From sequence record NC_070983.1: a DNA stretch of 64,000 bases; one strand, given 5' to 3'. Of this stretch, positions 2,508 to 61,787 are shown piece after piece. Source of the DNA: Escherichia phage IME267. The notes below the pieces were generated by a model. That model had not been told where the DNA came from, searched no databases, and saw only the letters and a program-made list of their open reading frames with translations. Position 1 is the first letter of the stretch; every line of letters starts with the position of its first letter. The position numbers and the translations under genes are program-made.

Positions 2508-2511
2508 GATA

Positions 2512-2532
2512 AGCCCCTTCGGGGGCTTTTAG
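2512..2532 (+). terminator. Intrinsic terminator-like hairpin (AGCCCC-TTCG-GGGGCT + TTTT) after tail fibre gene
   Basis: Perfect stem, UUCG tetraloop, T tract. Confidence 0.5.
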
Positions 2533-2596
2533 GAGTGAAACTGGTGAATAAGTAATGAAACTACTATATCCAAAAGGAAAATGAAAGGAGAAGAAA

Positions 2597-2815
2597 ATGA
2601 AAATGATGAAACAGGTAACTTATGGTCTAGCTTGCTTAGGGACAGGTTTTGTGATTTCCACAGCAGTACCTGTAAATGCAGTAGGCTCTCATTCTACTAT
2701 AGAAGCTCCTGTAGAGAAGCTTAGTTCTCAATGTAAACAAAGGACCATTCAAAATAATTTGGTTGTTATTTGCCCAGACGCTCAATCTTCAGCTCTGAGA
2801 AAAATTCTTCCTTAA
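2597..2815 (+). CDS. Small membrane/secreted protein, possible holin
   Basis: 72 aa, one N-terminal hydrophobic helix, immediately upstream of lysozyme gene; strong RBS. Confidence 0.3.
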   Translation: MKMMKQVTYGLACLGTGFVISTAVPVNAVGSHSTIEAPVEKLSSQCKQRTIQNNLVVICPDAQSSALRKILP

Positions 2816-2848
2816 TTGACCTAAAATAACAACAAAAGGAGGTCAAAG

Positions 2849-3340
2849 ATGGACGCTATCGCATTGCCGCCTGTACAGATGAGCCTAAGTCCGGCTGGTA
2901 TGGAGTTTATCATGAAGCATGAAGGCATGAGAACTAAAGCCTATAAAGACTCCGCTGGAATCTGGACTATATGTGTAGGGGCTACGCGCGATATGAATGG
3001 GTATCCAGTAAGACAAGGATTAACGTATTCTATAGAGGATTGTCTAGCTCTGCTAGATAGAGACACACAAGACTCTGTTCGTGCTACTCAGAAAAACATA
3101 AGAGTTCCTATGCTAGCTCATGAATTTGATGCTGTCACTTCTTTCAACTTTAATGTTGGTGGTGGTGCTTTGTCAGCTTCAAAACTTAGGAAAGTGATCA
3201 ACGGAGATGTGAAGGGTGATGTTTACTCAGAGTTCTTACGTTGGGATAAGATAACTGTTAAAGGTGTAAAGCAGCGGAGTCCGGGACTTCACAATCGCAG
3301 GGTTGCAGAAGCAAATCTATACACTACAGGAAAATATTAA
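2849..3340 (+). CDS. Lysozyme (GH24, T4/lambda-R-like muramidase); probable endolysin
   Basis: Motif …EFIMKHEGMRTKAYKDSAGIWTICVGAT… matches catalytic Glu and Gly-rich region of GH24 lysozymes; RBS AAAGGAGG. Confidence 0.8.
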   Translation: MDAIALPPVQMSLSPAGMEFIMKHEGMRTKAYKDSAGIWTICVGATRDMNGYPVRQGLTYSIEDCLALLDRDTQDSVRATQKNIRVPMLAHEFDAVTSFNFNVGGGALSASKLRKVINGDVKGDVYSEFLRWDKITVKGVKQRSPGLHNRRVAEANLYTTGKY

Positions 3341-3352
3341 TGGAGGTGCCTT

Positions 3353-4156
3353 TTGGCTATCGAAACAACTGCGGTAGTAACTACCGATTTAAACCCCCTA
3401 TACCCACGGGACAGGGATTATCTTTATGAAGGGGCTGCCCAGATACGACTGGTCAAACAAGTATTAATTAACACCTTTCCTAACATCACAGAGCCAGTTC
3501 AACTTGACTCAGATTCTTTCAACATCTTAGCAAACAAGGTTTCCTTTACTGGAGATTCTATGGATGTTGGAGGTTTGATGATCAAAAACTTAACTCCGGG
3601 AACTGGTGATAAAGATGCTGTAACCAAAGGTCAGATGGAAGCTTTCATGTTAAACTGGATGCAGAATAAACTCTATCGTATTGGGGCTTACTATATCACT
3701 GAAGAAGATATCAACCCCGGAGATTCTAGCTCTCTTGGTTTTGGTTCTTGGGCTAAAGTAACTGGTGTTGTTATGGGTACTGGTGTTGTTAACCCTGATG
3801 GCTCTGTTCCTAATGCTCAGCGTGTAGAGTTCCAAGCAGGTGGTACTGGTGGTCGTGTATTTAACACAATTCGTGCTGACAACATGCCTCTGACTACAAT
3901 CAATGGTTCTAGTTTTCAAGTTAGTTCTTATTCTCACTCACATAATATCACAATGGGTCGTGGAGATGCTAGTGGTCACAACAGCAGTCCTAATTGGTAT
4001 AGTCCGGGTGGTGGTTATACTCAGGTAACTGACACTAACACCCACTCTCACTCAATTACAGGTTCTGTTAGTTTTGGACGTGATGATGTATCAAGACAAC
4101 CTATTAACACTTTGCCGCCTTTCAGAGCAGCGCATATCTGGAGACGTATTAGCTAA
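3353..4156 (+). CDS. Tail fibre-like structural protein
   Basis: Gly/Ser/Thr-rich beta-type sequence, fibre-like N-terminus; tight operon coupling. Confidence 0.4.
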   Translation: MAIETTAVVTTDLNPLYPRDRDYLYEGAAQIRLVKQVLINTFPNITEPVQLDSDSFNILANKVSFTGDSMDVGGLMIKNLTPGTGDKDAVTKGQMEAFMLNWMQNKLYRIGAYYITEEDINPGDSSSLGFGSWAKVTGVVMGTGVVNPDGSVPNAQRVEFQAGGTGGRVFNTIRADNMPLTTINGSSFQVSSYSHSHNITMGRGDASGHNSSPNWYSPGGGYTQVTDTNTHSHSITGSVSFGRDDVSRQPINTLPPFRAAHIWRRIS

Positions 4157-4165
4157 GGAGGAATT

Positions 4166-7100
4166 ATGGCGCTTTATCCAATAAAATCTTTAGGGGCTGT
4201 AGGGGTTATTGCTGACCAAGCTCCGACTGATTTAGCACCTAATGCTTTCACTAATGCTATCAATGCCCGCTTTGTAGAGCAAAGAGTTTTTAAGACGGGG
4301 GGCAATGCCCCTCTTTCTTATGTAGAAGAAGATAAAGAGATTACACCACTTTCTTTTATATCAATGCCTTTTGACTACTACAGTGCAGGTAATAGCTTTC
4401 TGATTGTTGGTACAGACAAAAAGCTATACAAGCTAACAGATGAAAGTTTGACAGATATTAGCCGAAAGGTTGCTACTGTCACAAAAAGAGCTTCCGCTTC
4501 TATTAAGATATATCCAGTTGTTTCTCAGATTGTTCCTAAAGAAACTTCTATTTCAATGAATTTCAATCAAACTAAAACCTTGGAAGTTTCTATTCTTCCT
4601 GAAGATGCTAACAACACAGCTTTAGTTTGGGAGGTTAGTAATTCTTCTTATGGTAAAGTAGAAGCTGACACCGAGAACCCTAAAACTGCAACCTTGACGT
4701 CTTATGAAAAAGAAGGGAATTTAGTAGTTACTGTATCAACAGCTGATAAATCTATTAGTGCTCAGATTGCAGTAAACATCATAGACGGTGATTCTGGTAT
4801 CTTCTTAAGTCAGGATACAATAACTGTCCGCAAAGGTGGTAACACAACGCTAACTGCTGTTACTGGAAAAACTCCTGTAACTTGGGTCTCTAGTAATGCT
4901 TCTGTTGTGTCTGTAACACCTAATGCTAATACACTGACAGCTACTTTGTCTGCTAATGGTGAGGGTACTGTAACAATAACTGCTGATAACGGAACTAAGA
5001 GTGCTTCTTGTCAAATTACTGTTATATCTCAGATAGACAGTATCACTCTGAGTCAGACAAGCGTTCAAATGAGCAGAGGTACTCAGTATGTTTTAACTGC
5101 TACGGTTAATCCTTCAGATGCTCCCAATAAAAACATAACTTGGACTTCCTCTAATCCTGCCATTGCCACAGTTTCTGGAAATAGTACAGAAGCGGTAATA
5201 ACAGGGTTACTAGCTGGGTTTACTGAAATCACAGCTGTTACTCAAGAGGGTGATAGATCAGCAACCTGTACAGTGAGAGTTGATTTAGCTGGGAGAATGA
5301 TGCGAACTTCTGCAATGGCTTTATCAGAACCTGTTGTAGATTCTATACAAGAAGAAGAAACCAATAATACTCCTATCGAATCAGAAGAGGTTTTATATTT
5401 TGTTAATGAGCCATCTGGAGTTGATACCTCAGGGATGTATGAAGGTAACAACTTCTATGATTACTCAAACGTCAATGATATGGAAGGTTTTGCACGAGCT
5501 GCACTTATGTCCAGCGATACTCCGTTGCAATCTTTATCACTAGATATCATCGATGCCTCTCTTGATGTTGGGGAAGATATTGTAATTACAGCCAATGCTT
5601 TGCCTGAGGGAGAGTATTTCTATCAGTGGACAGTGGACAAAGCAGGATATGTTTCAACCACATCTACTACCGGGAAATCTCTAAAACTGACAGCTATTCG
5701 TAAAGGTGAGATCAAAGTTACTTGTACTGCTAGTCAAATGACTCAGAAAGATTATGATGCTTTTGACGACTATCCTTGGTATCACACCATAATCTCTAAC
5801 TGTGCAGTGGCTACCACTCACTATGAAACACCACAGGTCAAAGAATTTGAATCTGAGTATTTCGTAGATCTTCCGGGATGGGGTGAGCAAACAGTCGTTG
5901 ATAATGATGGCAACCCTTCTGTTAAGAAATTTAACTGGAAGTGTGAGCGTATTCGTGCATTCAACAACAGACTTTTTGCTCTGAATATGAGGGAATCTAA
6001 TGCATCTGGTGTAACTACTCACTACCCTCTAAGACTTCGGTGGTCGAATTTCGCTAACGAAAACAAAGCTCCATCTCTTTGGGATGATTATGCTTATGAT
6101 CGTTTAACAACTTCAGACCTATCAGCAAACATTGTTGGTCAAACTGAGGCTTTGGAAAATGGGTACGCTGGGTATATAGATTTAGCAGATTCTAACGGAA
6201 GCTTGATTGATGTACTTCCTCTGAAAGATTACCTTTTTGTTTACACGGAGTTCGAAACCTACATTGGTTCTCCAACCAATAACACATATCAGCCTCTTAT
6301 GTTTAAGAAGCTGTTTAATGACTCTGGCATACTTGCTCCTGAGTGTGCAGTTGAAGTCGAAGGTGGACACTTCGTAGTAACTCAAAATGATGTGATCTTA
6401 CACAATGGTGCATCTAAAAAATCTATAGCATCTAACCGAGTCAAGAATCTTCTCATTAATGAGATCTGTCTAGTAAACCCTCTAGCTACTAGAGTTCACC
6501 TACACCAAGACAAGAAAGAGGTTTGGGTTTTATATGTAGGTCCGGGAGAGCCTAAAGAGAGTTTTGCTTGTAATAAAGCCGCTGTTTGGAATTATGAGTT
6601 TGACACTTGGTCTTTCCGTACAATACCATATGCTCAGTGTATTGGGTTAGTCGATCCACCAGTTCTTGAGAGAGGTCCAATCTGGGCAGATTTTCAAGAG
6701 ATCACTTGGGATGATCCCTCTATTAACCAATTAGTCTGGAGAAAGGATGCTAATAACTTCCGTCAAAGGATTACAATAGTTGGCTCTTTCCTGAAGGGAT
6801 TCTATCAAGTGGATGTTGGTGCTCTGGACTACATCTATGACAGAACCAATGATAGGATTATAGAAAAACCTTTAGAAATGAGGCTAGAAAGAACTGGTAT
6901 TGATTTTGATAGTGTCACTAACGAGTGGAATCAAAAACATATTAATAGATTTAGACCTCAAGTCACTGGTACGGGTACTTATACTTTTGAAGTCGGTGGA
7001 AGTCAATTCTCAAACGAGTATGGACACAATCACTCAACTAAAGAGTTTAGGGTAGGCTCAGATCGTCATGTATCCGTGAGACTGAACCATCCATACCTAT

Positions 7101-7186
7101 TCTATAATGTTATAGATAATGATGTTAACAGTAATGCTTCTATGAATGGTTTAACCATAGAGTTTAGTGTTGGCGGTCGAAGATAA
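4166..7186 (+). CDS. Large tail protein with tandem bacterial Ig-like (Big_2) domains
   Basis: Repeated ~80-aa segments (…TLTAT…VSSNASVVSVTPNANTLTA…GEGTVTITA…) characteristic of Big_2. Confidence 0.55.
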   Translation: MALYPIKSLGAVGVIADQAPTDLAPNAFTNAINARFVEQRVFKTGGNAPLSYVEEDKEITPLSFISMPFDYYSAGNSFLIVGTDKKLYKLTDESLTDISRKVATVTKRASASIKIYPVVSQIVPKETSISMNFNQTKTLEVSILPEDANNTALVWEVSNSSYGKVEADTENPKTATLTSYEKEGNLVVTVSTADKSISAQIAVNIIDGDSGIFLSQDTITVRKGGNTTLTAVTGKTPVTWVSSNASVVSVTPNANTLTATLSANGEGTVTITADNGTKSASCQITVISQIDSITLSQTSVQMSRGTQYVLTATVNPSDAPNKNITWTSSNPAIATVSGNSTEAVITGLLAGFTEITAVTQEGDRSATCTVRVDLAGRMMRTSAMALSEPVVDSIQEEETNNTPIESEEVLYFVNEPSGVDTSGMYEGNNFYDYSNVNDMEGFARAALMSSDTPLQSLSLDIIDASLDVGEDIVITANALPEGEYFYQWTVDKAGYVSTTSTTGKSLKLTAIRKGEIKVTCTASQMTQKDYDAFDDYPWYHTIISNCAVATTHYETPQVKEFESEYFVDLPGWGEQTVVDNDGNPSVKKFNWKCERIRAFNNRLFALNMRESNASGVTTHYPLRLRWSNFANENKAPSLWDDYAYDRLTTSDLSANIVGQTEALENGYAGYIDLADSNGSLIDVLPLKDYLFVYTEFETYIGSPTNNTYQPLMFKKLFNDSGILAPECAVEVEGGHFVVTQNDVILHNGASKKSIASNRVKNLLINEICLVNPLATRVHLHQDKKEVWVLYVGPGEPKESFACNKAAVWNYEFDTWSFRTIPYAQCIGLVDPPVLERGPIWADFQEITWDDPSINQLVWRKDANNFRQRITIVGSFLKGFYQVDVGALDYIYDRTNDRIIEKPLEMRLERTGIDFDSVTNEWNQKHINRFRPQVTGTGTYTFEVGGSQFSNEYGHNHSTKEFRVGSDRHVSVRLNHPYLFYNVIDNDVNSNASMNGLTIEFSVGGRR

Positions 7187-7191
7187 CAAAT

Positions 7192-7212
7192 AGGGGCTTC
7201 GGCCCCTTTTAT
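7192..7212 (+). terminator. Intrinsic terminator hairpin (AGGGGC-TTCG-GCCCCT + TTTT)
   Basis: Perfect stem, UUCG loop, T tract, directly after stop of 4166..7186. Confidence 0.55.
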
Positions 7213-7221
7213 TGTTTTTAA

Positions 7222-8202
7222 TTGGAGGTACTTATGGGTGCTGGAGGTTTTCGAAAGAACACTGGTAGAAACAACACCACACTTCCGTACAATGTTGGTT
7301 TTCTAAACAATGTGCAGGATACAGAAACTTACAACGTTGCCGTCTATGATGAACTACAAAAAGTTAGTACAGCAACTAATCAGATGTTTCAAGCTATTGA
7401 TGAAATACATGAAGAAATTGATGTTAGGATTAAAGCTCTTAATGCAATGAATCTTCAATTTGATGAACTTGAAAACAGAATTACTACAGAGATCGAAACA
7501 GCTATTGCTGATATTCAAACACAGATGGGCAATCTGTCCACTGAAGATATTTGGGATAATTCAGTACAACCGCCAGTTAAGCTAGAAAGTTCTATGGCAG
7601 GGTTTAAAACTTCTATAGAAGGTAATGAGGTTAAGATACAATCTGTTGAGGGAATCGTAAACCAGCAGGGAGAGGAAATTGGCTTAGTTCAAACAGAGAT
7701 CTCCAACATTAACAGCAGCCTATCTTCTTATATGAAGCTATCTGACTACGAGGCTACGTGGGGGGTTAACTCAAATGTCAACGGTAGGTATGCTGGTGTC
7801 AAGTTAACTAACAACGGAACAAACAGTCAATTCCAAGTAACAGCTAACAAATTTATTGTTGGTGATGGCAGCTCTGGTAACACACCTTTTGTGTTTGAGG
7901 GTGGTAGGGCTAGAATGGAGTTCGCTGACATAAAGAACGTCAACATCACAACTGCTCAGATTGCCAACGCTAGGATCCAATGGGCACAGATTGATAACGT
8001 ATCTATCTCCAATGCTCAGATTCAGAATTTATCAGCGGATAAAATCACTGCTGGTTCTATGTGGGGTTCTAACTGGAGACTTACTGTTGGTGGTGATTTT
8101 GTTATGGGTGGTACAGGTGGTTCTCAGTTGTGGATGAATGGTAATAGAATAGATTTTTATGATGGGAGTGGAACTCTTCGCATAAGAATAGGGAGTTGGT
8201 AA
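7222..8202 (+). CDS. Tail fibre / host-specificity-like structural protein
   Basis: Coiled-coil N-terminal half, C-terminal repeats (…AQIANARIQWAQIDNVSISNAQIQNLSADKITAG…). Confidence 0.4.
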   Translation: MEVLMGAGGFRKNTGRNNTTLPYNVGFLNNVQDTETYNVAVYDELQKVSTATNQMFQAIDEIHEEIDVRIKALNAMNLQFDELENRITTEIETAIADIQTQMGNLSTEDIWDNSVQPPVKLESSMAGFKTSIEGNEVKIQSVEGIVNQQGEEIGLVQTEISNINSSLSSYMKLSDYEATWGVNSNVNGRYAGVKLTNNGTNSQFQVTANKFIVGDGSSGNTPFVFEGGRARMEFADIKNVNITTAQIANARIQWAQIDNVSISNAQIQNLSADKITAGSMWGSNWRLTVGGDFVMGGTGGSQLWMNGNRIDFYDGSGTLRIRIGSW

Positions 8203-8203
8203 C

Positions 8204-9238
8204 ATGGCATATGGAATATGGACACGCCCGGTTGGTCCGGGTCCAGCGGCCCCTGCTGATATTTATATTGATAGTGGTAGCACATTCCCTCAACTCAGAA
8301 ATAGGGTCAGTGGGAATTTCTCTTTTAGTGGAAATACCTGTGACTTGCCTATAAGTGGTTGGGATGGTAGTGGTCAGATAGTTATAGTTCCAACAGGGTC
8401 TGTTGTTTGGGAGAGATACATACCTCCCAATTTAACATCTGATGTATATTGGATAACTGACATATCTGTTATTAATAACTCAACCTTCAGAGTTACTATG
8501 GACTATAATGTAAACGGTTGGATATTTGATATGGCTTTTAATGTGTATCAAATATGGCCTAGAGCTAATAGGAACTATGGAATCACATTCTCCAACTCTG
8601 CTGACTATTTCTCAATCTCTGATTCTGGAGTTGTTGGTCAATGTATTTGGGCTTGGGAAGGTGACATAAATGGTTCTCTTCAAATACCAGATATTGGTGG
8701 TTTTGATATGAGCCGAGCAACTGTCTACGCAAATTGGAGTAACGGAGGAGCAGGGCTTCTATACAATCCATCCAATAGGGTTGTTTATGTGTACCAGAAC
8801 AGGTCTCATGATAATGGTAACACAAACCAAACAGGATCCATTGGCGGTGTTAGAATTGCCGTCTTCTGTGATGGTTCTGGAGTACCGACTCATAATGGAG
8901 GTTTAAATATCTTTTCTCCAAATGGGTCTCAGTGTGTATTTTCTACATATAGAACCCCTTTTAGTGTTGAGGGATTTATGCCTATGAGTGGTGGTAACAC
9001 ATCTCTGGCCTATCCAATGATACCACTATCTTACGGAGCCGGAGCAATAAGAGGCAGGACTAGTGGTTGGTATTTTCAACACACAAGATCTCACATGATG
9101 AATGGCTCTTCTTTCAGCACAGGTTTCGGTAGGATGATTTACTCTTGGAGTGACCAATACGATTTAGGAGGAGGTGGTGCTCTCGGATTAAGCATTCCGA
9201 TATTAGATGCTAGGAAAATATTCAGGAGTATACAATAA
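8204..9238 (+). CDS. Structural protein, unknown function
   Basis: ORF coupled to neighbours in structural operon. Confidence 0.35.
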   Translation: MAYGIWTRPVGPGPAAPADIYIDSGSTFPQLRNRVSGNFSFSGNTCDLPISGWDGSGQIVIVPTGSVVWERYIPPNLTSDVYWITDISVINNSTFRVTMDYNVNGWIFDMAFNVYQIWPRANRNYGITFSNSADYFSISDSGVVGQCIWAWEGDINGSLQIPDIGGFDMSRATVYANWSNGGAGLLYNPSNRVVYVYQNRSHDNGNTNQTGSIGGVRIAVFCDGSGVPTHNGGLNIFSPNGSQCVFSTYRTPFSVEGFMPMSGGNTSLAYPMIPLSYGAGAIRGRTSGWYFQHTRSHMMNGSSFSTGFGRMIYSWSDQYDLGGGGALGLSIPILDARKIFRSIQ

Positions 9239-9247
9239 GGAGTTATT

Positions 9248-10045
9248 ATGTCAATTAGAATGGGTATTGAAGAACTAGACCCAATGGTTCAACAGGCTTC
9301 AAAGAAGTATGGGATTCCTGCTGCTTTGATTCATGCTGTAATCCAAAGAGAGTCTAGTGGTCGTCCTACAGTGGCTTCTGGAACTGGTCCTGTAGGCTTA
9401 ATGCAGATTAGTAAAGGGTTGGCTAAAGATTATGGTTACAAACTTGAAGATAGGTTAGACCCTGCAAAGAATATTGACATGGGTGCTAGATATTTAAGAG
9501 ATAACCTGAAAGCTTTTGACGGTGATGTGAGGAAGGCTTTGGTGGGGTATTCAGAAGGGACTGGTGGTGCTAAGCAAATGTTTGCTGGTAAGAAAGGGTT
9601 TACACCTCAAGCTTTAGATTCAATGAATAATAAGCTGTTCCTACCATTCTTTGATAAGAACACAGCAGCGGCACAAGTGGCTAATCCTGTAGGTGCTTTG
9701 AAAGCAGTACAGCCTGTGGACCAGTTTGATTCTAATACGCTGACTAGAGAAGGTGCTGCAAACGCTCCTACTCAAGCAGAGATAGCTGCAAGCAAGGCTG
9801 GAGCTTTAGGTGGTCGTCCCGTAGAGTTTTACTCTGATGAACAATCTACTGGGGAAAATCAAAAACCTCAACAGAACTTTGGAAATGCTGTATTGGCAGC
9901 TGCTTCTATGCTTGCAGGAAAACAGCCTAACTCTCAAACCGTACAGAGAGCACATGCCCCTACTCAAGCAGGTTCTCGATATAGTCCACAAACACAAGCC
10001 GTGCTGAGACGTTTGTCTAGCATAGGTACTGATATTTACAGATAA
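9248..10045 (+). CDS. Virion-associated lytic transglycosylase (SLT domain)
   Basis: …AVIQRESSGRPTVASGTGPVGLMQI… matches SLT catalytic Glu-Ser and GLMQ motif. Confidence 0.65.
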   Translation: MSIRMGIEELDPMVQQASKKYGIPAALIHAVIQRESSGRPTVASGTGPVGLMQISKGLAKDYGYKLEDRLDPAKNIDMGARYLRDNLKAFDGDVRKALVGYSEGTGGAKQMFAGKKGFTPQALDSMNNKLFLPFFDKNTAAAQVANPVGALKAVQPVDQFDSNTLTREGAANAPTQAEIAASKAGALGGRPVEFYSDEQSTGENQKPQQNFGNAVLAAASMLAGKQPNSQTVQRAHAPTQAGSRYSPQTQAVLRRLSSIGTDIYR

Positions 10046-10054
10046 GGAGGACGT

Positions 10055-11107
10055 ATGTCTCTTTTCGGTTCTGCTCCTAAATCTAAGACTACGGTAGCTC
10101 CGTCTTCTCAGGTTGATGCTCTTCTGAAACAGATTGTAGCAAATGCTCAGGCTATGAATCAAAACGATCAAGGTTTTATTAATCGTAACATAGCAGGTTT
10201 TAATGAAAATCAAACAGCAGCTCTTTCTAATTTAGCAAATTCTAACACACTCAACCAACTCAGTCAGATGTACACCCCTAGAACTCAACAAGGGTTGGAC
10301 CAGATGAATGAGTTGGCTCAGAAATATCAAAACCTAGTTAATAAGGGTGGTATCTCCGCTCAAGATGTTAATAATTTTAGCTCTGGACTGAATAACTCTG
10401 CACTAGCTAAGTCTACAGGCAAAGCTGCTGCTAATGTATCTCTTGGCAATGGCTCTGACTCAGGCTCTCTGAGACGCGCTGCTGCTCAAGGTGCTGCTCT
10501 TTCTTCAGCGAATACTAACCTCTCTCGCTCTATTCAGGGTAAAAATATGGGTGTTAGTAATCTTCTGAATAACAACTCTTATCAGCAAGGTTTGCTCAAT
10601 GCTCAGTCTGGTTTAGCAAATCAGAATCTGAACCTAGGAGCTGCTGGGGTGCAAGCTGGTCAACAGGCAATACAGAATCAGCTCACTGCTGGAAACCTTC
10701 AACAGCAGCAAGATCAACTCCAAGCTAACAACAATTGGGAGAATGCTATTGGTAGTCAGCGGTATGGTTGGAATCAGCTTAACAATCAGCTTAATGTATT
10801 AAACTCAGTAAGTCCAATGGCTGGGTACACTATTACTAATAGAGGTGCTGCCCCTAATGCTTCACAACAAATCCTTGGTGCTGGGGTTACTGGTCTTGGT
10901 ATTGCTGGTCGTCTAGGTGCTTTTACCCCTAATCAGCAAACTACTAATGCTTGGAACTCATACAATGCTTCTGGAGGTCAAGCTGGGATGGCTGGTCCTA
11001 TGATTGGCGGCTCAAACCTGTCTCAACAGAATGGTCAGAGCAACTGGCTATCTACCGCAGGAAGTAATATCTTAGGTGGTGTTCTAGGAGCCTTTGGAGC
11101 AAATTAA
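10055..11107 (+). CDS. Gln/Asn-rich internal virion protein (paralog of 11117..12085)
   Basis: Low-complexity Q/N/G/A composition; N-terminal similarity to next ORF. Confidence 0.35.
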   Translation: MSLFGSAPKSKTTVAPSSQVDALLKQIVANAQAMNQNDQGFINRNIAGFNENQTAALSNLANSNTLNQLSQMYTPRTQQGLDQMNELAQKYQNLVNKGGISAQDVNNFSSGLNNSALAKSTGKAAANVSLGNGSDSGSLRRAAAQGAALSSANTNLSRSIQGKNMGVSNLLNNNSYQQGLLNAQSGLANQNLNLGAAGVQAGQQAIQNQLTAGNLQQQQDQLQANNNWENAIGSQRYGWNQLNNQLNVLNSVSPMAGYTITNRGAAPNASQQILGAGVTGLGIAGRLGAFTPNQQTTNAWNSYNASGGQAGMAGPMIGGSNLSQQNGQSNWLSTAGSNILGGVLGAFGAN

Positions 11108-11116
11108 GGAGGAGCT

Positions 11117-12085
11117 ATGGCTTTATTTAGTGGTGGGAGTAGCAAGACTACTTCTAAAATGACAAGACCTGACTACATTCAGTCCTATATTGATCAGTTG
11201 GTCAATCAGGTTAATAACACTAGTTCAGGCGATTATGTGTATCGAGAAATTGTTGGACTTAATCAAAACCAGCAAGAAGCTCTGAATAATCTATCACAAT
11301 CTGGTGCATTAGGTGCACTTTCTTCTCAGTATATGGATGCTGCTCAATCTGGCTTAGGTTATCTAGATAATGCATACTCTGGATATAACAACCTGTCTAA
11401 CTCTGGTCAAATCACTGGGGAACAGATTGGTGCTCTTGCAGGCCAGCTCTATGACGATGAGGCTGTGCAAGCAGCTATTGCAGCGAATAATGAACAAACC
11501 CAACAGAGTTTGGCTAGGAATGCACTTCCTCAAATCTCTCAGCAGTTTGCTGGTCAGCAAGGTTCTGGTGCACGTATGGCTAAATCTTTTGCTCAGGGTG
11601 ATGCTCTGAACCAGATGCAGAACACAGCAACTAATATTACTAACAGTGCCTACGACTCCGCTCTAACTCAAGCACAGAACATTCTTTCTGGTAATAGACA
11701 AACACAAGCATCTGCTTTAGGTGGTTTATCTAACATTGGCTCCAATCTTGCTAATCTAGGAAACCAAGCTGGTCAGTTATCACAACAGCAAATGATGAAT
11801 CAGTGGAATGCAGGACTGCAACAGCAGCAACAACAGCAATCTGATTTGAACAATGCTTATGAGAATGCTCAGAATGCTGCTAATTGGGGTTGGCAGGATA
11901 TTAACAATCAACTAGGTGCTGCCGGGGTTCTTAATGGAGCTTTAGGGACAACCACAACTACTAAAACATCTGGTGGTAGTGGAGGCTTCCTAGGTGGTGC
12001 TGCGAGTGGTGCTGCTGCTGGTTCAGCTTTTGGCCCTTGGGGCGCTTTAGCTGGCGGTGTTATCGGTGGATTAGCTAGCTCTTAA
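11117..12085 (+). CDS. Gln/Asn-rich internal virion protein (paralog of 10055..11107)
   Basis: Similar N-terminal pattern and composition. Confidence 0.35.
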   Translation: MALFSGGSSKTTSKMTRPDYIQSYIDQLVNQVNNTSSGDYVYREIVGLNQNQQEALNNLSQSGALGALSSQYMDAAQSGLGYLDNAYSGYNNLSNSGQITGEQIGALAGQLYDDEAVQAAIAANNEQTQQSLARNALPQISQQFAGQQGSGARMAKSFAQGDALNQMQNTATNITNSAYDSALTQAQNILSGNRQTQASALGGLSNIGSNLANLGNQAGQLSQQQMMNQWNAGLQQQQQQQSDLNNAYENAQNAANWGWQDINNQLGAAGVLNGALGTTTTTKTSGGSGGFLGGAASGAAAGSAFGPWGALAGGVIGGLASS

Positions 12086-12099
12086 TTAGGAGAATAATT

Positions 12100-13767
12100 A
12101 TGCAACAAACTTCTTATGCGTATCTTCGCAGTCAAGACCCAAGAAATCAGATTTATGGTGTTAAACAAGGGGCCGCTTCGGCCTCTCCATACATGGCAAG
12201 ACCTGCTTATCCAGCTGCTGATGTTTCTATGTATAACCGGAGACCTCCTGCTTCTCCTGTAGGTTTGTCTTCTCTTGTTGCCAATGCTCAAGAAGACCAA
12301 GAAGCTATGTTAAATCCGGGATTTAGACAGCGCCTTATGGAAGCAGAGAATCAAGGAACTCCTACAAGCCTTCAGGGTATTGATATTGGTGAACCAGCTC
12401 CTGCTATGAATAACCCAGATCTATCCTCTGATGAGGGTCTACAAGCTGCTGGGTTGATGCCTAGTGACCCACTTCCTGTTACTCCTCCTCGTAAACCTCT
12501 GGAAGAAACAGATAAAGAGTTCTCTCCAGTTCAAGTGGAACAGGCTCAGAATGTTATTAACACTTTAGCTAATAGTAATCCAGCTCCTGAAGGTATGGCT
12601 GGTGCAACTCGTGCTAAAGACCAAGAACGTATTAATAATGATATTATGGAAGTAGCTAAAGCTAAAGACCCAGCACAAGCTTGGAATGAGCTTCAGAAGC
12701 AACCGTTCTATCAGAAGTCTAGTTTCTATACAGGGTTGATGGGTGTTGGTCTTTCTATTATGTCTGGTAAGTCCCCTATTGAAGCTTTCCAGATTGGCTC
12801 TGGTTTGGCTGCTCAGGATGAAACTAAACAACAGTTAGAAGCTAATCGTGATGCTCTGTTAGAGCAAGGCTACTCTCAAGACTCGGTTGCTGCTGCAATT
12901 GCTTCAGGAGATCCTTCTCTTCTTAAAATGCGTCAAATTAGTCCTCAGGAGAAAATGGCTCTTGCTGCTCAAGATGAAGAACGTGCTAACCGTGAATGGG
13001 ATAGACGTCAGCAGATTCAAGAGAACTCTATGCGAGAGCGTGCTGCTGAGACTCGTCGTGCTGCTGAAGAACGTGCTGATGCACAATTTGCTAAACAGAA
13101 AGAGCTTATTGAATATCGTGATAAGGTTAAAGCAGACCGCGCTGAACAAGCTGCTCAGAGCTTCAACTTCAGTACGAAAGAGCTTCGTAACGTTCAGAAT
13201 ACTGCTGAAGGTTCTGTTGCTAAGCAGTGGGCAGAAAAAGCTGCTCTGTTTAAACAGTCTCATAAGGACTTGGATTTGGCAGATCAGGCTATTAAAGATA
13301 AAGACTACCAATCCGCTCGTACCGCTTACATGCAGGCTATTATGAACTCCGCAAGGGCAGAAATTGGTGCTAACCGCTCTCTCCAAGCTGATGACTTGGC
13401 TCACTTTGCAGAAGACCCATCAATCTTTGTTAAGGTTGGTAATACTTGGTCACTTAAAGCAGGCTATCGTCCTTCTGATGCTGCTCTGTCATACGCTCGT
13501 AAGCAGGCAACTGTTGGTGCTTCTTCGGCTGACAAAGGTGTTCTGGAGTCTAAGAAATCAACTATTGATGCTTATGTGGGTTCTGGCATGAATAAGAAAC
13601 GTGCAACAGCTTTGGTTAACCGTGGTATACCTTCTGGCGGTTTCTATGACCCATACAAGACTTTTGATGCAGAAGCTGAAGAATCTGTTGGTGGAGATGC
13701 AACCAATCCTCGCTTAACAGGTGCTCTTTCTTCTTCAGCGACAGATACGAGTTGGATGTTACAGTAA
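12100..13767 (+). CDS. Internal virion / ejection protein, unknown function
   Basis: 555 aa with charged coiled-coil central region. Confidence 0.35.
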   Translation: MQQTSYAYLRSQDPRNQIYGVKQGAASASPYMARPAYPAADVSMYNRRPPASPVGLSSLVANAQEDQEAMLNPGFRQRLMEAENQGTPTSLQGIDIGEPAPAMNNPDLSSDEGLQAAGLMPSDPLPVTPPRKPLEETDKEFSPVQVEQAQNVINTLANSNPAPEGMAGATRAKDQERINNDIMEVAKAKDPAQAWNELQKQPFYQKSSFYTGLMGVGLSIMSGKSPIEAFQIGSGLAAQDETKQQLEANRDALLEQGYSQDSVAAAIASGDPSLLKMRQISPQEKMALAAQDEERANREWDRRQQIQENSMRERAAETRRAAEERADAQFAKQKELIEYRDKVKADRAEQAAQSFNFSTKELRNVQNTAEGSVAKQWAEKAALFKQSHKDLDLADQAIKDKDYQSARTAYMQAIMNSARAEIGANRSLQADDLAHFAEDPSIFVKVGNTWSLKAGYRPSDAALSYARKQATVGASSADKGVLESKKSTIDAYVGSGMNKKRATALVNRGIPSGGFYDPYKTFDAEAEESVGGDATNPRLTGALSSSATDTSWMLQ

Positions 13768-13792
13768 TCTAAGACCTAAGTCCTATCTCTTA

Positions 13793-13801
13793 TAATGTAT
13801 A
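13793..13801 (+). promoter_or_regulatory. TAATGTATA element upstream of the 1481-aa gene; candidate phage-sigma-dependent late promoter
   Basis: Exact TAATGTATA about 37 nt before ATG at 13838; resembles late-promoter element recalled for phiEco32-type phages (recollection, unverified). Confidence 0.35.
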
Positions 13802-13837
13802 TAGGAGGTAGGACATTTTTATTTATAAGGAGACGTT

Positions 13838-20077: not shown

Positions 20078-20666
20078 AGAGTTCTCTCCGTGTCCGTACA
20101 ACAATCCAGTTTAAATAATCTACTGCATCTTCTACAGTAGAATTATTCGCTAGGTAGTATGTATTTCTCTGACTACCTTCAATGTAGGAACGAGAATCTC
20201 CTTTAAAATCACAACCTTCACGAATCACCTGAATTACCTGAACATGGAAATGTTTCTCTAGTTCTTCAACTTCGGCTTTGAACCCACCATCAGAGAAGAC
20301 GATAACATCATTCTGTGATGGGATACGTTGTTGAATACTGCTAACAGCAAGTTTACCCATGCAGGTCTCACCAAACATAGGCTTCAGGTAATTCTCGCTA
20401 GTTGCAATCATCAAGTCTCGAACTGACTTACCGTCCCATTCAGGACGGCTATGCTCTTTCCACTCACGATCGTTGTACAGCTCCATGAACTCATAAAGAG
20501 GTAGACCTAATGCAGCAGCAGCCACTCGATACATAGGCTCCTTAAAAGCCTTTACATGAGGCCTAAACTCGGTGTTACCAAGTGTTTTCTCTAACCAAGA
20601 ATTAGCGATTGTATCTTTACCACAACCCGGTGGTCCATTCAGAATTACTACTAATGGTTTACTCAT
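20070..20666 (-). CDS. P-loop kinase, probable (deoxy)nucleoside monophosphate kinase
   Basis: Walker A VVILNGPPGCGKDT at N-terminus; ~200 aa. Confidence 0.5.
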   Translation of the reverse strand: MSKPLVVILNGPPGCGKDTIANSWLEKTLGNTEFRPHVKAFKEPMYRVAAAALGLPLYEFMELYNDREWKEHSRPEWDGKSVRDLMIATSENYLKPMFGETCMGKLAVSSIQQRIPSQNDVIVFSDGGFKAEVEELEKHFHVQVIQVIREGCDFKGDSRSYIEGSQRNTYYLANNSTVEDAVDYLNWIVVRTRRELYV

Positions 20667-21316
20667 TATTGAATCATCCCTTGAAGATCTTCTTTATCAA
20701 AGTGCTTCTCTACTACCGCTTCATACAGATCACGATTCTCTGAATAACGACGATAGAAGGTTCCGTGTGAAATTCCCAACTCTTGCTGGATGTGATCATG
20801 TGGGATGCCGAGAAAGAGCATTGAGAACATGCTTGCCATCTTACGGTTTTCCATAATGTCACTCAGGTCTTGGAAGAAGAAAAAGATTCTAGATTCCAAG
20901 AACGGGTCTCCAGTAGAATCATGCTTATCCATCGCAATCTCTAAAGGACTTTCCCATGAATTCATCTCAGGAGGTCTAAACATATCAGCCTCTGGAATAG
21001 AGTAGATACGTCGGTCTCCAACTGTCTGGCGATTAGAACGAATCGACCAGATGATATTCTTGACACGATAAGTCATGTGCTCAATATCTTTTTCATCAGT
21101 GAGCAGAAGTTCTTCTTGCTTTGCAAACACAAAACGCCAAGCGTTCAGTAATACTTCCTGAGCAACATCCTCTGCCTCGTGATAGTCTTTAATGTCATAC
21201 ATAAAATACTTATGCACAACTTTCCAGTTCTCTCGATAAAATTCATCGAAGGTTGGATAATATTTAATAGGAATGCCATGAATACGATAGCGTGTGGGTG
21301 TTGTCTTCTTCTTCAT
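20666..21316 (-). CDS. Phage-encoded sigma factor (sigma70/ECF-like regions 2 and 4)
   Basis: Region-2-like [16 protein letters not shown] and region-4 HTH-like …[16 protein letters not shown]…. Confidence 0.65.
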
Positions 21317-22113: not shown

Positions 22114-22854
22114 TTAGAAAGGGCTGTCATCTTCTTCAAAGGTAGACTGCGGCTCTTCGTTAATAGTAGGGATACTTGGAGTAGCATCTTTCTGTTCCGT
22201 ATCAGAAGCTTTAGTAACTTCACGACCAGCCAGAGGGATATTCTTAGCATCGTTAGCTTGAGTCAAGAGGTTGCGTTGGAATGGAAAGATTGCTTGATAA
22301 GCAGCTAAGTTAGCGTCAGTCTCAGCATACGGTTCGAAGAAGATCAACTCACTACGAGGAGCACCTACCGCGTCACGATATTTAGTCGGGATTGGAGTGA
22401 TGCTTTTAATGGAGTTTTTCTTCTCACCAGCTTTATTGGTGTAAGAGTTAACCAGAATGTTAACAGGCTGACCTAACAGCATATCTTTAAACCAACCCAA
22501 ATCACCTTTCAGTGCTTGAACACTTGGGTCGATCATTTTAATCAGATTTAGAATACCAGAGTTCTTAGCTCGTGGGTTTACATCGAAAGATTTAAACTGG
22601 CAAGCAGGACGAGGGTCCAGAGGTTTGCCTTCATTATCAGTCCCTGTTGCATCTACGCCAATCAGCTCAAAAGCTAAGTCCATACGGAAAGCTGGGTTCT
22701 TAGGGGTAACTGCTTTGGTCTTAGGGTCAATCCAAGGGTCACGATTGTGAACACCCAAACCTACAACACGAACAATACGTGCTTCGTACTCACCATCAGG
22801 GATTACATCGTAGTTGGATTTACGGGATACAGACAGTTCAGGGATCATAGACAT
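22114..22854 (-). CDS. Putative single-stranded DNA-binding protein
   Basis: Acidic C-terminal tail ending …FEEDDSPF, as in SSB C-termini; position in replication block. Confidence 0.45.
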   Translation of the reverse strand: MSMIPELSVSRKSNYDVIPDGEYEARIVRVVGLGVHNRDPWIDPKTKAVTPKNPAFRMDLAFELIGVDATGTDNEGKPLDPRPACQFKSFDVNPRAKNSGILNLIKMIDPSVQALKGDLGWFKDMLLGQPVNILVNSYTNKAGEKKNSIKSITPIPTKYRDAVGAPRSELIFFEPYAETDANLAAYQAIFPFQRNLLTQANDAKNIPLAGREVTKASDTEQKDATPSIPTINEEPQSTFEEDDSPF

Positions 22855-22913
22855 ATTAATATTTCCTTATATAGATTTAAGATTGTTGCTCTCTTTGAGC
22901 GGTTTGTATACTA

Positions 22914-22922
22914 TATACATTA
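22914..22922 (-). promoter_or_regulatory. TAATGTATA element on - strand ~60 nt upstream of the putative SSB start
   Basis: Reverse complement of tatacatta read directly; lies in a 415-bp AT-rich intergenic region. Confidence 0.3.
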
Positions 22923-23399
22923 CACTTATACAGATAAGGTTCTATTATACTATAACCTTTTTGGTAGTAGATAATGACAAGTAGTAATGTATATATGGTA
23001 TAGCTAGTAAAGCTATTGCAGGCTTGTATATTGGGCAATCATTGTAACCCTTGCAAGTACCGAAGGGCAGGAGACACCTGCGAGATAAAAATAGAGAATT
23101 AAGGAAATCCTTGATTTAGGTTGTAGGGACTCCTAGGGACTTTGATTCTCTATTTAAAAGAATATTAATTACTTACTACCTAAATAATTAACTAACTTAC
23201 TTAAACCAAATTCAATAATAATAGATAAAAAGATTATTCCTAAGAAAGCTAAGAAGTAAAGAACATAAGTTACCACTCCATCATTCCTTTTAATCTAGAT
23301 TCTTCTACTATTCGCTGATAAAGTAAGTTAGATTCAGCTTGATCTTTTAACATCTTACTGTATTGATCTCTGAGACTATCTTTATAAACAACAGGTGGT

Positions 23400-29915: not shown

Positions 29916-29962
29916 CATAACTCCTTAATATATCAGTGTACACTAAGGAGTATACATTATGT

Positions 29963-30700
29963 TTATGATTTTTCAGATTCCATTGCTTTAACAATAGCTT
30001 TACAGAAACCTGAACGAACAATATCATCTGATTCGCCATCTACTAGAGCGGCAAATTCAAATAACTGGTGACGGTAGATGAAATCAGTAGCCCAATCAAG
30101 ACCGCTCTCACCACGCATGTCGTGCTGGTTAGTGTCCCCCATGCAGAACATCTGAGAGGTTTCACCAAGACGTGTCATGATTGAATATGCTTCATCAGGA
30201 GTAGTGTTCTGGAACTCATCAACAATCACGATAGCATCATTGAACGAGCGACCACGTAGATATTCCAGAGGTACGAACTCAATATTACCATTACCTACTT
30301 GACATTCGTAGAAACCTTTACCGTAGCGCTGAGTAATAACATCAACGATTGGCATTAGGTATGGTTCAAACTTCTCACGAAGCCCACCGGGAAGTAATCC
30401 AAGACTATTACCCATACCAACAGCAGGTCGGCTTAGGATAATCTTCTCAATCTTCCCACTCTTCAGAGCATCAATCACTGTAGAAGTGATTACGAAGGTC
30501 TTACCACAACCAGCAGGAGCATCTGTGAATACAACCTGTTTGGTTTTAATTGCATCAAGCAGCTCACTCTGGAATTGGTTCTGAGGTACTACCGGCTTAG
30601 CAAGAACTACTTCTTCAAATTCCCGCTTTCCTTTCTTGGTGACGAGAGCTTCACGACGTAATTCTCTCCGTGATGCTTTCCGAGATTCTCTACGACTCAT
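29963..30700 (-). CDS. phoH: PhoH-like ATPase
   Basis: Walker A …DAPAGCGKTFV… and conserved …ILSRPAVGMGNSLGLLPGGL…. Confidence 0.8.
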   Translation of the reverse strand: MSRRESRKASRRELRREALVTKKGKREFEEVVLAKPVVPQNQFQSELLDAIKTKQVVFTDAPAGCGKTFVITSTVIDALKSGKIEKIILSRPAVGMGNSLGLLPGGLREKFEPYLMPIVDVITQRYGKGFYECQVGNGNIEFVPLEYLRGRSFNDAIVIVDEFQNTTPDEAYSIMTRLGETSQMFCMGDTNQHDMRGESGLDWATDFIYRHQLFEFAALVDGESDDIVRSGFCKAIVKAMESEKS

Positions 30701-34209: not shown

Positions 34210-34592
34210 CCCCTTCTAAGTTAGTTGAATTAGCTACGTTACGAGCAATGTTGTCCATGACCTGCTGGGTAATAACAATGCAATTCTGTGGGTCTACAGA
34301 CTTAGAACGCCCCATTTCAGGGTCATAGACTTTGACTCGCTTGGCTGTTGAGCCAGTAACTTGCAACACTTTGAGAAGATAACCTTGGTTTCCAATAGAC
34401 CATGCAACAACATCACGATTCTTGATATAACGACCAAGCATATCACGATGATAGAACTGCTGCATAACTTTAGCTTTGCTAATCTCTTCAGATGGCGGGG
34501 CCACTTTACTCAAATCTAACATAACTCTCTCCTGTTTCATACAATATTCTTATACTGTATATACATTTGAGAGTTATCATATCTACTACCAA

Positions 34593-40380: not shown

Positions 40381-41311
40381 GGCTGCTTACCAATCATGTT
40401 GGAAACCAGAATATCCAGAGAAGATGATTGATCGGATTGGCTTTTCAGGGAATTCTTCAAAACATCCCTTAATGGCTTTCTTGGTTTCATCAGAAATTGA
40501 CTCTTTTTCACCAAACCAATATTCTTCAAAAATATCAGAGAAGATATAAGTTCGGTATCTTTCCAAGTCATAAAAACCTTCCACTGCACTTGTAACAGCT
40601 CTACTAATTACACTTGAAGCTACAGGAAATAAGTCACCGTGTTCCAGAAACAAGCACCAACGATCAAAGAGAGGAATCTCTTCATCTTTCAGAAGACTTT
40701 CTAACTCTTCCTTTGCCTCTTTCTTGTGCTTCTCAAAGAGGTTTTTGGAATACTCTACATCTAAGATACGACTTTTAAACATATCCAGTTTATTATTAAC
40801 CATTTTACAACCTCTAGTTAAATTCGAACTAGCCTCCTCTTTCGAAGAGGCTAAAGCAAATTATTCTACTTCGAAGTGTTTGATCACACCAGTCAGTACA
40901 TCAGATTGGAATGTACCAACTAGCTCTGTACCTCGGAAGAAGTTAACACTTGTTCCAAGTGATTCAAAGCGATCTGCTTGAATGTCCAGAGATTGAATAT
41001 TTCCTTCTGCTGACATTGTACGAAACATGATTGTGTATTTATTCACAGACTTGTTACTCCCTTATCTGCTTGTGCAATTGCGATGATACGCTCAGCACAT
41101 TCCATTGAATATTTATCACCTCGTTTGAGGAAGGTGATGATTGCAGAGAACTGATTACCAATCACTCTCTTATTTGTGATACCAAACTCTTCACAGAGTT
41201 GGTTGATAGCTTTACGAGAGCCTACAATCAGAGGCTCTTTTTCTTCGGTCATTCCACGGCTGATCAAATCTTCGATAGACAACATTACAAATTCCTTTTT
41301 GTTTAATTTAA

Positions 41312-53763: not shown

Positions 53764-53839
53764 TGGTGCACCCTACAGGACTCGAACCTGTAACCAACGA
53801 CTTAGAAGGTCGCTGCTCTGTCCGTTGAGCTAAGGGTGC
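53764..53839 (-). tRNA. tRNA-Arg(UCU): tRNA-Arg (anticodon UCU), 76 nt with encoded CCA
   Basis: Hand-folded cloverleaf: 7-bp acceptor stem, D arm, anticodon loop CTTCTAA, T arm ACAGG-TTCGAGT-CCTGT, 3' ACCA. Confidence 0.8.
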
Positions 53840-60157: not shown

Positions 60158-61066
60158 CTTTCAACTGTAAGGGCACTATGCCCCGCTCTCTATGAGCTTT
60201 TTAAGTCACTATTGACTTATCAATAATCACTCAATATCAAGTAATTATTGATAAGCGAGGCGGTCTTATCAGGAGTTAACCTTGCCGCCTCCTTATCCGT
60301 GATGTTTCATCTGGTATCTTTAATTAGTCGCTATAAATAAAGCCGACCTGATAGCGATGATCAATCATCACAATAAGGCAGTGCGTCCGACTCTATTTAA
60401 TTACTTTATCGTAACCGTCGGCAATATCGTCTACTTTGCTTTCGCTCCCGCCTATCCTTTTGTACTAACTCTCAATCGCTAACCATCGCCCACTACGGGA
60501 GGTTATTGCGAAAGAGTCATTAGCCGTCTAATACATTGACGTTTTATATCTTTCAGCAGGTTTACTACATAAACTGATTATGTACGCCATCAATAGTGGC
60601 CTCAAATCATTCACATCGTAAACGTTCACACTAAACCTTATTGTTAAATAGCAATTTGCCACTTTTTAACCATTCACCGCCGCCCCCAATTGAGCGTTAA
60701 TTCTTCGGGCTTGCCTACCCTGATTAACTTCTTTCACTGTAGCGCCTTGTTAGCGATGACCGCCGCTACCCTTAACCGTGGGCGATTAGCTTAAGTCTTT
60801 GCGTACACTCAATGAATCCGTTTATCAGTGGTGACGTTTCCAGCAAGGGATTATAAGATTGTTTTCTCTGATAGTTTAGAGAATCTTACACCGTTTTATC
60901 TGGTATGTTATCCGATGGTTATTATCATCTAACATATTCAACCGATATAGGAGAATGTTTAAATTATTAAAGAGCGGTAAATCTATCAGTGTACTTTCTC
61001 ACACTATGCAACTGTTAGCCGTTGTTACGCTTTTCACTGAAGCGGTGATTTGCTTAGTGAGTGCTC

Positions 61067-61095
61067 ATTATGAATCATGTTGTTTTCGCTGTCAA
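61067..61095 (-). promoter_or_regulatory. Near-consensus sigma70-type promoter on - strand (TTGACA-17-CATAAT)
   Basis: -35 TTGACA (rc of 61090-61095), 17-nt spacer, -10 CATAAT (rc of 61067-61072). Confidence 0.5.
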
Positions 61096-61379
61096 CCACT
61101 TTTTAATCTTTTTTCGTCGTTCCCGCTATTGGGAGGATATATCAATCAGCTTTATTTGATTGAAGACTAAGCGGTGATGCTTATCTTATGATTCATATTG
61201 TTAAAGAGCGGTTACTACATTTACAGCTTAACACATCGTGTTAGCTTGTCAAACTCTTTTTATCATCTTCTTTTAATTCCTTTCCCTTATCTCGCGTGAA
61301 TCTATGCGAAAGGGCAAGATGATAAGTTTTTAAAGAGCGGGATATTTCACGTCATCGCTGACTATGCTCACTATATATC

Positions 61380-61408
61380 AGGCTGTTTTCGGTGTCAATA
61401 CTCTTTTT
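61380..61408 (-). promoter_or_regulatory. Near-consensus sigma70-type promoter on - strand (TTGACA-17-TATAGT)
   Basis: -35 TTGACA (rc of 61403-61408), 17-nt spacer, -10 TATAGT (rc of 61380-61385); homologous to the 61067-61095 promoter. Confidence 0.5.
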
Positions 61409-61509
61409 AAGAATATTTTCACTTTCTAGCCTGATTTTTAAAGAGCGGGGCAAGTGGTAAACCTGCCTTGTATGTTTTACATCGTACCCGATGAATTGAA
61501 GTATACATT

Positions 61510-61537
61510 AACCAATGACGGTTGCAATAGGGTAAAG
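61510..61537 (-). promoter_or_regulatory. Promoter-like element on - strand (TTGCAA-16-TATACT) overlapping a TAATGTATA motif
   Basis: Read directly; could be sigma70-type or phage-sigma-type. Confidence 0.35.
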
Positions 61538-61689
61538 CAAAATATTTTAAACTTTTTCACTATAGGAAGGTAAAAGAGCGGGAGCGCGTGATACATCATA
61601 GGAAACGGCATGTAAAGTGATATTTAGCGGCCTAAAACGCACTATAGCGAGCTAAAAGGGAGTAAGGCATACAATCACCTCATAAAAGA

Positions 61690-61722
61690 GAAAAGCCTCA
61701 CTAGGAGGCTTACAGGAAGGAT
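61690..61722 (-). terminator. Terminator-like hairpin on - strand after 61788..62153
   Basis: AAGCCTC-CTAGT-GAGGCTT followed by TTCTCTTTTAT. Confidence 0.45.
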
Positions 61723-61787
61723 TTAAAGCATCAGATAGATTATGACCATAGGCATGACCACGGCACAATACAGGAGAAAGATTAGTC

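Follow-up and report, generated by a model that had tools for sequence, protein, structure and literature searches.

Orthologues of phiEco32 gp36 promoters in Escherichia phage IME267 and a conserved divergent promoter-like site in front of a structured non-coding stretch

We analyzed 64,000 nt of the DNA of Escherichia phage IME267 (NC_070983.1, one strand; hereafter the window) and found five exact copies of the 9-mer TAATGTATA, at 13793(+), 22914(-), 22985(+), 29951(-), and 61502(-), along with a functionally equivalent one-mismatch copy, AAATGTATA, at 34560-34568(-). The copies would be the -10-type elements to which a gp36-type sigma factor, encoded by the phage itself, directs host RNA polymerase, and it is very probable, on orthology, that the gp36 promoter mechanism established in phiEco32 transfers to this phage. 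The phage sigma would serve the orthologues of P26, P40, P58, and P68 and a divergent site that we call Pdiv, with the copy at 61502(-) being served by sigma-70. As a promoter class the motif is already known and is no discovery in itself; what goes past the literature reviewed is a seventh promoter-like site, unlisted there and fully conserved, with a structured non-coding stretch behind it.

Judging by its closest relatives, the window phage is an E. coli podophage of the phiEco32 type, in the subfamily Gordonclarkvirinae. Of the 97 phage records matched by 10.5 kb of sequence around the motif, vB_EcoP_HC-25922 was the best (98% identical), followed by MLP3, 101114UKE3, and SU7, with phiEco32 at ~79%; relative to phiEco32, the window phage falls in the Suseptimavirus/Kuravirus group, nearest to HC-25922 and SU7. 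Late genes occupy the plus strand up to 18283, beyond which the rest of the window carries middle and early genes on the minus strand; base composition is ~42% G+C and only ~9% of the window is non-coding. A tRNA-Arg (anticodon TCT) lies at 53764-53839(-), and phiEco32 has one at the same position.

The sigma factor that a preliminary description had recognized from the sequence was borne out by homology. Its product is 80% identical to phiEco32 gp36 over 215 aa and matches PHROG 1740 (sigma factor), and in the PDB it is related only to the gp36 chain of 9m7y (chain F, 'RNA polymerase ECF sigma factor', E=1e-117). The contact residues of gp36 were taken from PMC12276001 and then checked on the alignment of gp36 with the window sigma: E79, H80, Y83, R84, W90, S91, S94, and N95 are all identical, and the C-terminal pair is conserved as Y188/R189 (Y186/R187 in gp36 numbering). 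We infer a specificity identical to that of gp36 for a protein that differs from it at 20% of positions. A search of IMG/VR with the window sigma protein returned only ECBP2. The phage also encodes an orthologue of gp79, in which the residues that bind gp36 (L6, L9, V10, and M14) are I, L, I, and M, conserved or conservatively replaced. As gp79 inhibits the sigma-70 holoenzyme and co-activates the gp36 holoenzyme, displacing sigma-70 and stabilizing gp36 (PMC12276001), this orthologue would displace sigma-70 and stabilize the phage holoenzyme. The sigma is annotated as a 'hypothetical protein' in HC-25922, and the authors of the SU7 paper were unable to identify a sigma factor (records OQ555404 and MZ342906); annotation of the HC-25922/SU7 clade lags behind the phiEco32 literature.

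Six gp36-holoenzyme promoters of phiEco32, before genes 6, 13, 26, 40, 58, and 68, are cited from Pavlova et al. 2012 in Lavysh et al. 2022 (PMC8948821) and in Guzina and Djordjevic 2015 (PMC4331800). Where these two papers and PMC12276001 treat the gp36 promoters, they give a single common element, tAATGTAtA, and place the start of transcription 6-8 nt past it, which agrees with the statement in the preliminary description that phiEco32-type sigma factors recognize an element of this kind. In our search of phiEco32 the motif preceded just these six genes, and a seventh copy stood at 36704(+). Xu et al. 2025 (PMC12276001) solved the open complex on P68 by cryo-EM; in it, AATGTA spans -14 to -9, the gp36 residues E79 to N95 listed above read -14 to -11, and R187 and Y186 contact -37G and -34A, bases whose mutation abolishes activity; P26 was transcribed in vitro by the gp36 holoenzyme in the same study. 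Following this published work, the N-terminal domain of the window sigma would read AATGTA from -14 to -9, recognizing -14A, -13A, and -12T in duplex DNA with melting from -11G, the C-terminal domain would touch -37 and -34, and transcription would start ~7 nt past the 9-mer.

Four of the sites can be assigned to mapped promoters, because the genes downstream match phiEco32 genes 26 (81% identical), 40 (84%), 58 (90%), and 68 (92%): those at 13793, 22914, 29951, and 34560 are the orthologues of P26, P40, P58, and P68, and by this orthology they would function as such, with start sites that are predicted (Table 1). The architecture of the P26 orthologue is identical to that of P26 in phiEco32, and P68 has the AAATGTATA variant together with TGGTAGTAGATA in both the window and phiEco32. 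The P40 orthologue differs from its phiEco32 counterpart by a shift of one base in the upstream element, TAGAA, which stands one base closer than in the other promoters. All six sites, the five exact copies and AAATGTATA, lie in DNA that is annotated as intergenic by phiEco32, SU7, and HC-25922.

The preliminary description had counted four exact copies and proposed them as late or middle promoters. Its reading holds for the motif class and for three of the four sites, as 13793 and 22914 correspond to P26 and P40 and 22985 has the full architecture; the fourth lies 10 nt from where it had been placed (61502-61510, not 61512-61520) and is an early copy of the sigma-70 type, and the count missed 29951-29959(-), which is P58, as well as AAATGTATA at P68. 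Its label of 'putative SSB' for the 246-aa gene found no support in Pfam or PHROGs. It had also remarked that no copy precedes the structural genes at 312-13767, which is true within the window: these genes belong to the P13 operon and P13 lies to the left. HC-25922 places the copies at P6 and P13 at 1660 and 9430, both outside the window, and window base 1 is HC-25922 position 12324, so P13 is ~2.9 kb away. For the gene-68 homologue, the list of open reading frames gives a start at 34540 (115 aa), whereas an ATG at 34522 (109 aa) has a Shine-Dalgarno sequence; alignments with the PHROG and with phiEco32 begin 6 residues after the 34540 start, and the predicted P68 start at 34553 agrees with the shorter version.

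Table 1. Features of the window and gp36 promoters of phiEco32
Feature	Genome	Position	Strand	Elements or basis
P26 orthologue, late, before 1481-aa gene	Window	13770..13808	+	TAAGA 13770-13774; TAATGTATA 13793-13801; predicted start G13808
Phage sigma factor, gp36 orthologue, 216 aa	Window	20666..21316	-	Homology
P40 orthologue, middle, before 246-aa gene	Window	22907..22945	-	TAATGTATA 22914-22922; TAGAA; predicted start A22907
Pdiv, predicted seventh gp36-type promoter	Window	22962..23000	+	TGGTA 22962-22966; TAATGTATA 22985-22993; predicted start A23000
Candidate structured RNA, ~160 nt, non-coding	Window	23000..23158	+	Conservation, covariation, folding
5' hairpin of candidate RNA	Window	23001-23015	+	Starts at predicted +2; compensatory changes
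Hairpin GCAGG/CCTGC	Window	23067-23081	+	
Long hairpin	Window	23089-23155		Two G-U pairs, plus strand only
35-aa phiEco32 gp41 homologue, small hydrophobic peptide	Window	23169-23276	-	VTYVLYFLAFLGIIFLSIIIEFGLSKLVNYLGSK
P58 orthologue, middle, before 105-aa gene	Window	29944..29982	-	TGGAA 29978-29982; TAATGTATA 29951-29959; predicted start A29944
P68 orthologue, middle	Window	34553..34591	-	TGGTA 34587-34591; AAATGTATA 34560-34568; predicted start A34553
gp79 orthologue, 80 aa	Window	41043..41285	-	75% identical to phiEco32 gp79
Sigma-70-type early promoter	Window	61500..61527	-	TTGCAA-N16-TATACT; -10 region holds TAATGTATA 61502-61510
P6	phiEco32	1677		TAATGTAGA
P13	phiEco32	9101		
P26	phiEco32	26014		
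P40	phiEco32	36632	-	
P58	phiEco32	42937	-	
P68	phiEco32	46862	-	AAATGTATA, TGGTAGTAGATA

An upstream element accompanies the 9-mer at these promoters. In an alignment of 44 promoter instances (29 distinct sequences, seven promoter classes, nine genomes) in which the 9-mer is numbered -15 to -7, the AATGTA core was invariant in all 29 distinct sequences, as were A at -34, a purine at -36, and a purine at +1, while -37 was a purine in 27 and -38 was T in 25. The resulting element, T-R-R-n-A from -38 to -34, agrees with the two upstream contacts of the cryo-EM structure (PMC12276001). At a fixed offset, 2.1% of window positions carry it. The sites at 13793, 22985, 29951, and 34560 have a purine at -37 and A at -34, as does 22914 with a 1-nt shift, and all five of these proposed gp36-type sites have a purine 7 nt past the 9-mer. 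When the window was scanned for a near-consensus -10 with the upstream element, the full -10 was found only at these five positions. Matches to NAATGTANA at 2729, 8506, 24698, 37185, 44389, 46224, 54926, 62780, and 63911 were rejected as promoters, being in coding sequence or lacking the upstream element. A sixth match of the scan, TAATGTATT at 10792-10800(+), lies inside the gene-23 homologue with TGGAA at -38 to -34 and a T at -7, a position otherwise invariant; the match is kept in HC-25922, E20-1, and 172-1, reads AAATGTATT in Bas88, and could be a weak internal promoter or merely conserved coding sequence.

The 314 bp that separate the homologues of genes 40 and 41 hold both P40 and Pdiv, which point away from each other, and no gene lies downstream of Pdiv on the plus strand. 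Its upstream element begins at -38 within TGGTAGTAGATA, the same 12-mer as at P68. The exact 9-mer and the upstream element were present in 16 of the 16 phage genomes compared, which include the window, phiEco32 (36704+), ECBP2, HC-25922, Bas88, E20-1, 172-1, KBNP1711, myPSH2311, SU7, 4E8, Paul, ev_rybdy8, Bas94, and XT73, and in three of four metagenomic contigs. A scan of IMG/VR for GGTAGTA-N15-WAATGTATA gave 85 loci, and two hits occurred only in five kuravirus contigs, where they are Pdiv and P68; the remaining loci were set aside as chance matches. On this sequence evidence, Pdiv is likely an active gp36-type promoter, from which transcription would run in the direction opposite to P40, through conserved non-coding DNA, and yield an RNA of at least ~160 nt that begins with a conserved hairpin. 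Pdiv is not among the six phiEco32 promoters that PMC8948821 and PMC4331800 cite from the primary mapping study, and literature searches for an antisense RNA, a small RNA, or a divergent promoter in phiEco32 returned nothing relevant.

Two sequence variants lie in this region. The fourth metagenomic contig (L023, ERZ1034915 NODE-75, ~3370) is the only sequence seen with an altered Pdiv: it reads TAATATATA, with -11G changed, and its downstream conserved block is intact. Either a sequencing error or a natural knock-down could explain this. HC-25922 has a 2-nt insertion between the Pdiv -10 and the 5' hairpin (L004 18324-18340, TATATATATGG vs TATATATGG), which shifts the predicted start relative to the hairpin. 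The 'promoter' annotations of SU7 and 4E8 in the same intergenic region are software calls unrelated to the motif.

No ATG occurs for ~160 nt from the predicted Pdiv start, and the stretch is a candidate structured RNA. Its first 17 nt form the 5' hairpin, whose pairs covary among relatives (UA to GC, CG to UA or AU, and GC to GU), so that the stem ATAGCT/AGCTAT appears elsewhere as ATAGTT/AACTAT, ATAGA/TCTAT, or AGAGTT/AACTCT; the change from G-C to G-U, found in four sequences, gives pairs on the plus strand only. Farther downstream, a block of ~100 nt (23060-23158) is nearly invariant across genomes that are ~79% identical overall. In Rfam searches, the tRNA-Arg was the window's only hit at the gathering threshold, and 22850-23300 gave none at E<=1. 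Complementarity between the candidate RNA and the phage's own mRNAs came to only one 11-mer, which is at chance level, so action in trans on phage messages by long pairing is unsupported. The segment between hairpin and block (23016-23060) exists in two unrelated versions, one of ~45 nt in most genomes and one of ~70 nt in ECBP2, myPSH2311, and some metagenome contigs; which of the two a genome has is independent of overall phylogeny (homologous positions compared in L003 and L009), which suggests recombinational mosaicism inside the candidate RNA.

We tentatively propose that the site at 22985(+) is a real gp36-dependent promoter, conserved throughout the phiEco32-like phages, and makes a discrete structured RNA of ~160 nt (23000 to ~23158) that annotation and the published lists of promoters have passed over. 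With the same reserve, this RNA would have a 5' protective hairpin and an invariant 3' domain and might act as a middle or late regulatory RNA or as a replication primer; that Pdiv makes a discrete functional RNA at all is a possibility that we put forward no more firmly.

Rather unlikely, in our judgment, is that 22985(+) is inactive, one arm of a 12-bp inverted repeat (GTAATGTATATA) formed with P40, and that the block is a minus-strand terminator or protein-binding DNA. On the minus strand, the stop codon of the gene-41 homologue stands 14 nt ahead of the long hairpin, which is followed by TTTTTATCTC, its 11-bp A/T-rich stem by TTTTTAT. The hairpin may also be the terminator of the upstream minus-strand operon, which would explain part of the conservation without a plus-strand RNA. 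The segment that it encloses is ~45 nt, and the terminator scan made no call. Two TAGGGACT direct repeats 10 nt apart within the hairpin, the failure of the scan to find a plus-strand terminator downstream, and the loss of -11G in one natural variant are also consistent with an inactive site. The minus strand folds better than its shuffles too (-35.7 kcal/mol, z -2.0), although the fold of the plus strand exceeds it in stability by 10 kcal/mol (-45.4 kcal/mol, z -2.5) and the G-U pairs of the long hairpin form on that strand only. Covariation is seen in the 5' hairpin, whose start falls at the predicted +2, and the G-U pairs there would be A-C mismatches on the minus strand. A mere repeat arm, moreover, needs neither the full upstream element at the right spacing, within the TGGTAGTAGATA of P68, nor a purine at +1, and Pdiv has both.

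An active Pdiv could instead have a role in DNA replication, its transcription priming or activating an origin in the intergenic region, by analogy with phage T7, in which the phi1.1A/B promoters serve a primary origin made up of promoter and A/T-rich stretch; we consider this improbable. No conserved non-coding stretch in the middle region is longer than the one that holds the divergent promoters, and an A/T-rich stretch comes after it; annotations of these phages list a T7-like primase-helicase and split Pol I-type polymerases. However, the A/T-rich stretch is mostly coding sequence of the gene-41 homologue, which is absent from ECBP2, Bas88, E20-1, Paul, and XT73, the stretch being deleted there. 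The literature reviewed holds no mapped origin for this phage group, and GC skew tracks gene orientation only and is uninformative on an origin.

The sequence does not support a gp36 promoter at the early-region copy, 61502. Positions -38 to -34 read ACCCT there, with none of the four upstream gp36 contact bases, and the predicted +1 is T. In an alignment of six genomes (the window, ECBP2, Bas90, SGF2, O18-011, and MN05), TTGCAN, TATACT, and an upstream A/T tract were kept in all six while the spacer varied, and the AATG part was replaced by GGCG or AGCG in three (SGF2, O18-011, and MN05); the exact 9-mer stands at this position in the window, ECBP2, and Bas90, and the segment has no counterpart in phiEco32. 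The setting is that of an early spacer: in phage SU10, three sigma-70 early promoters are preceded by a terminator after the gene-125 homologue (PMC4281155), and a scan of the window found a terminator at 61711-61693 with three minus-strand promoters below it. Because the upstream gp36 bases are absent and relatives keep only the sigma-70 hexamers, the copy is, to judge from these alignments, an early sigma-70 promoter that spells the 9-mer by chance in some lineages. We regard as very improbable that it is a dual promoter, read early by sigma-70 and later by the phage sigma, so that the early spacer is transcribed after sigma-70 shut-off. The 9-mer is exact in three of the six genomes, and the authors of the SU10 study suggested that both holoenzymes read some promoters (PMC4281155); however, -34A and a purine at +1 are invariant among the 29 distinct gp36-type sequences, mutation of -37 or -34 abolishes gp36 transcription (PMC12276001), the relatives without AATG retain the sigma-70 hexamers, and phiEco32 is missing the whole segment.

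The spacer itself, 60158-61787(-), is 1.6 kb without an open reading frame, bounded by the homologues of phiEco32 genes 125 and 124, and holds sigma-70-type promoters at 61527-61500, 61398-61370, and 61095-61067, and four copies of CGCTCTTTAA[A/T/C]AA (61447, 61339, 61210, and 60976) where 0.12 would be expected. These strong early promoters would transcribe more than 1 kb of non-coding DNA.

Finally, that the TAATGTATA copies are chance 9-mers without function, as might be supposed in A/T-rich phage DNA (the window has 41 copies of the 6-mer AATGTA), is refuted by a shuffle test and by orthology: 100 dinucleotide-preserving shuffles of the window gave 0.77 +/- 0.94 copies and none reached the five observed, every copy lies in the ~9% of the window that is intergenic, and four sites, which every relative examined has in exact form, are orthologous to promoters mapped by experiment. 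The preliminary description would have taken a motif no more frequent than expected in AT-rich sequence as a refutation, and the count over the window came out above chance.

Among known systems, phiEco32 is the closest, sharing the 9-bp element, an orthologous sigma, gp79, the sites before genes 26, 40, 58, and 68, and the -37/-34 bases; it differs in that Pdiv is off its published list, as PMC8948821 and PMC4331800 cite it, though phiEco32 has the copy. In Salmonella phage 7-11, the phage sigma gp47 guides host polymerase to equivalent positions, including that before the gene-40 homologue, but gp47 is only ~15% identical, gp79 and a middle class are lacking, and the late promoters follow a bipartite consensus, GTAAtg-N16-aCTA, without TAATGTATA-type elements (PMC8948821).

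The metagenome contig Ga0157366_1000034 (L026) has the same gene order as the window around the sigma and the gene-40 homologue. Before the latter, at 2382-2413, it carries TGGTA-N18-TAATGGATA, the same architecture with one change at position -10 (T to G), and its sigma is 53% identical to gp36, with H80N and R84Q, which suggests a shifted -10 specificity in a sister lineage. Its 10.6 kb contain no NAATGTANA, no divergent copy, and no conserved RNA block. Because this contig has the spacing and the upstream element without NAATGTANA, the promoter architecture is, on the evidence of one contig, presumably older than the exact 9-mer, and by the same contig Pdiv and the RNA block appear confined to the phiEco32-like group.

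Phage lambda makes the oop RNA, a short transcript of the antisense or origin-proximal kind. Like lambda oop and the T7 primary origin, Pdiv would be a strong promoter without a coding gene that lies in intergenic regulatory DNA and converges on an upstream operon. There is no sequence or Rfam relationship, and Pdiv would be read by a phage sigma with host polymerase.

For the annotation of these phages, in which the main value of the work lies, SU7 and HC-25922 were deposited with the sigma as 'hypothetical' and with software-called promoters that miss the sites described here. The T-R-R-n-A element, which is an addition to the literature reviewed, tells true gp36-type sites from look-alikes. 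Carried over from phiEco32, the model would set the temporal map of the window phage, with the late operon read from P26 and the middle operons from P40, P58, and P68. Transcription of the stretch behind Pdiv, should it occur, would give the phiEco32-like group its first non-coding RNA and offer a simple test case for phage-sigma-driven RNA.
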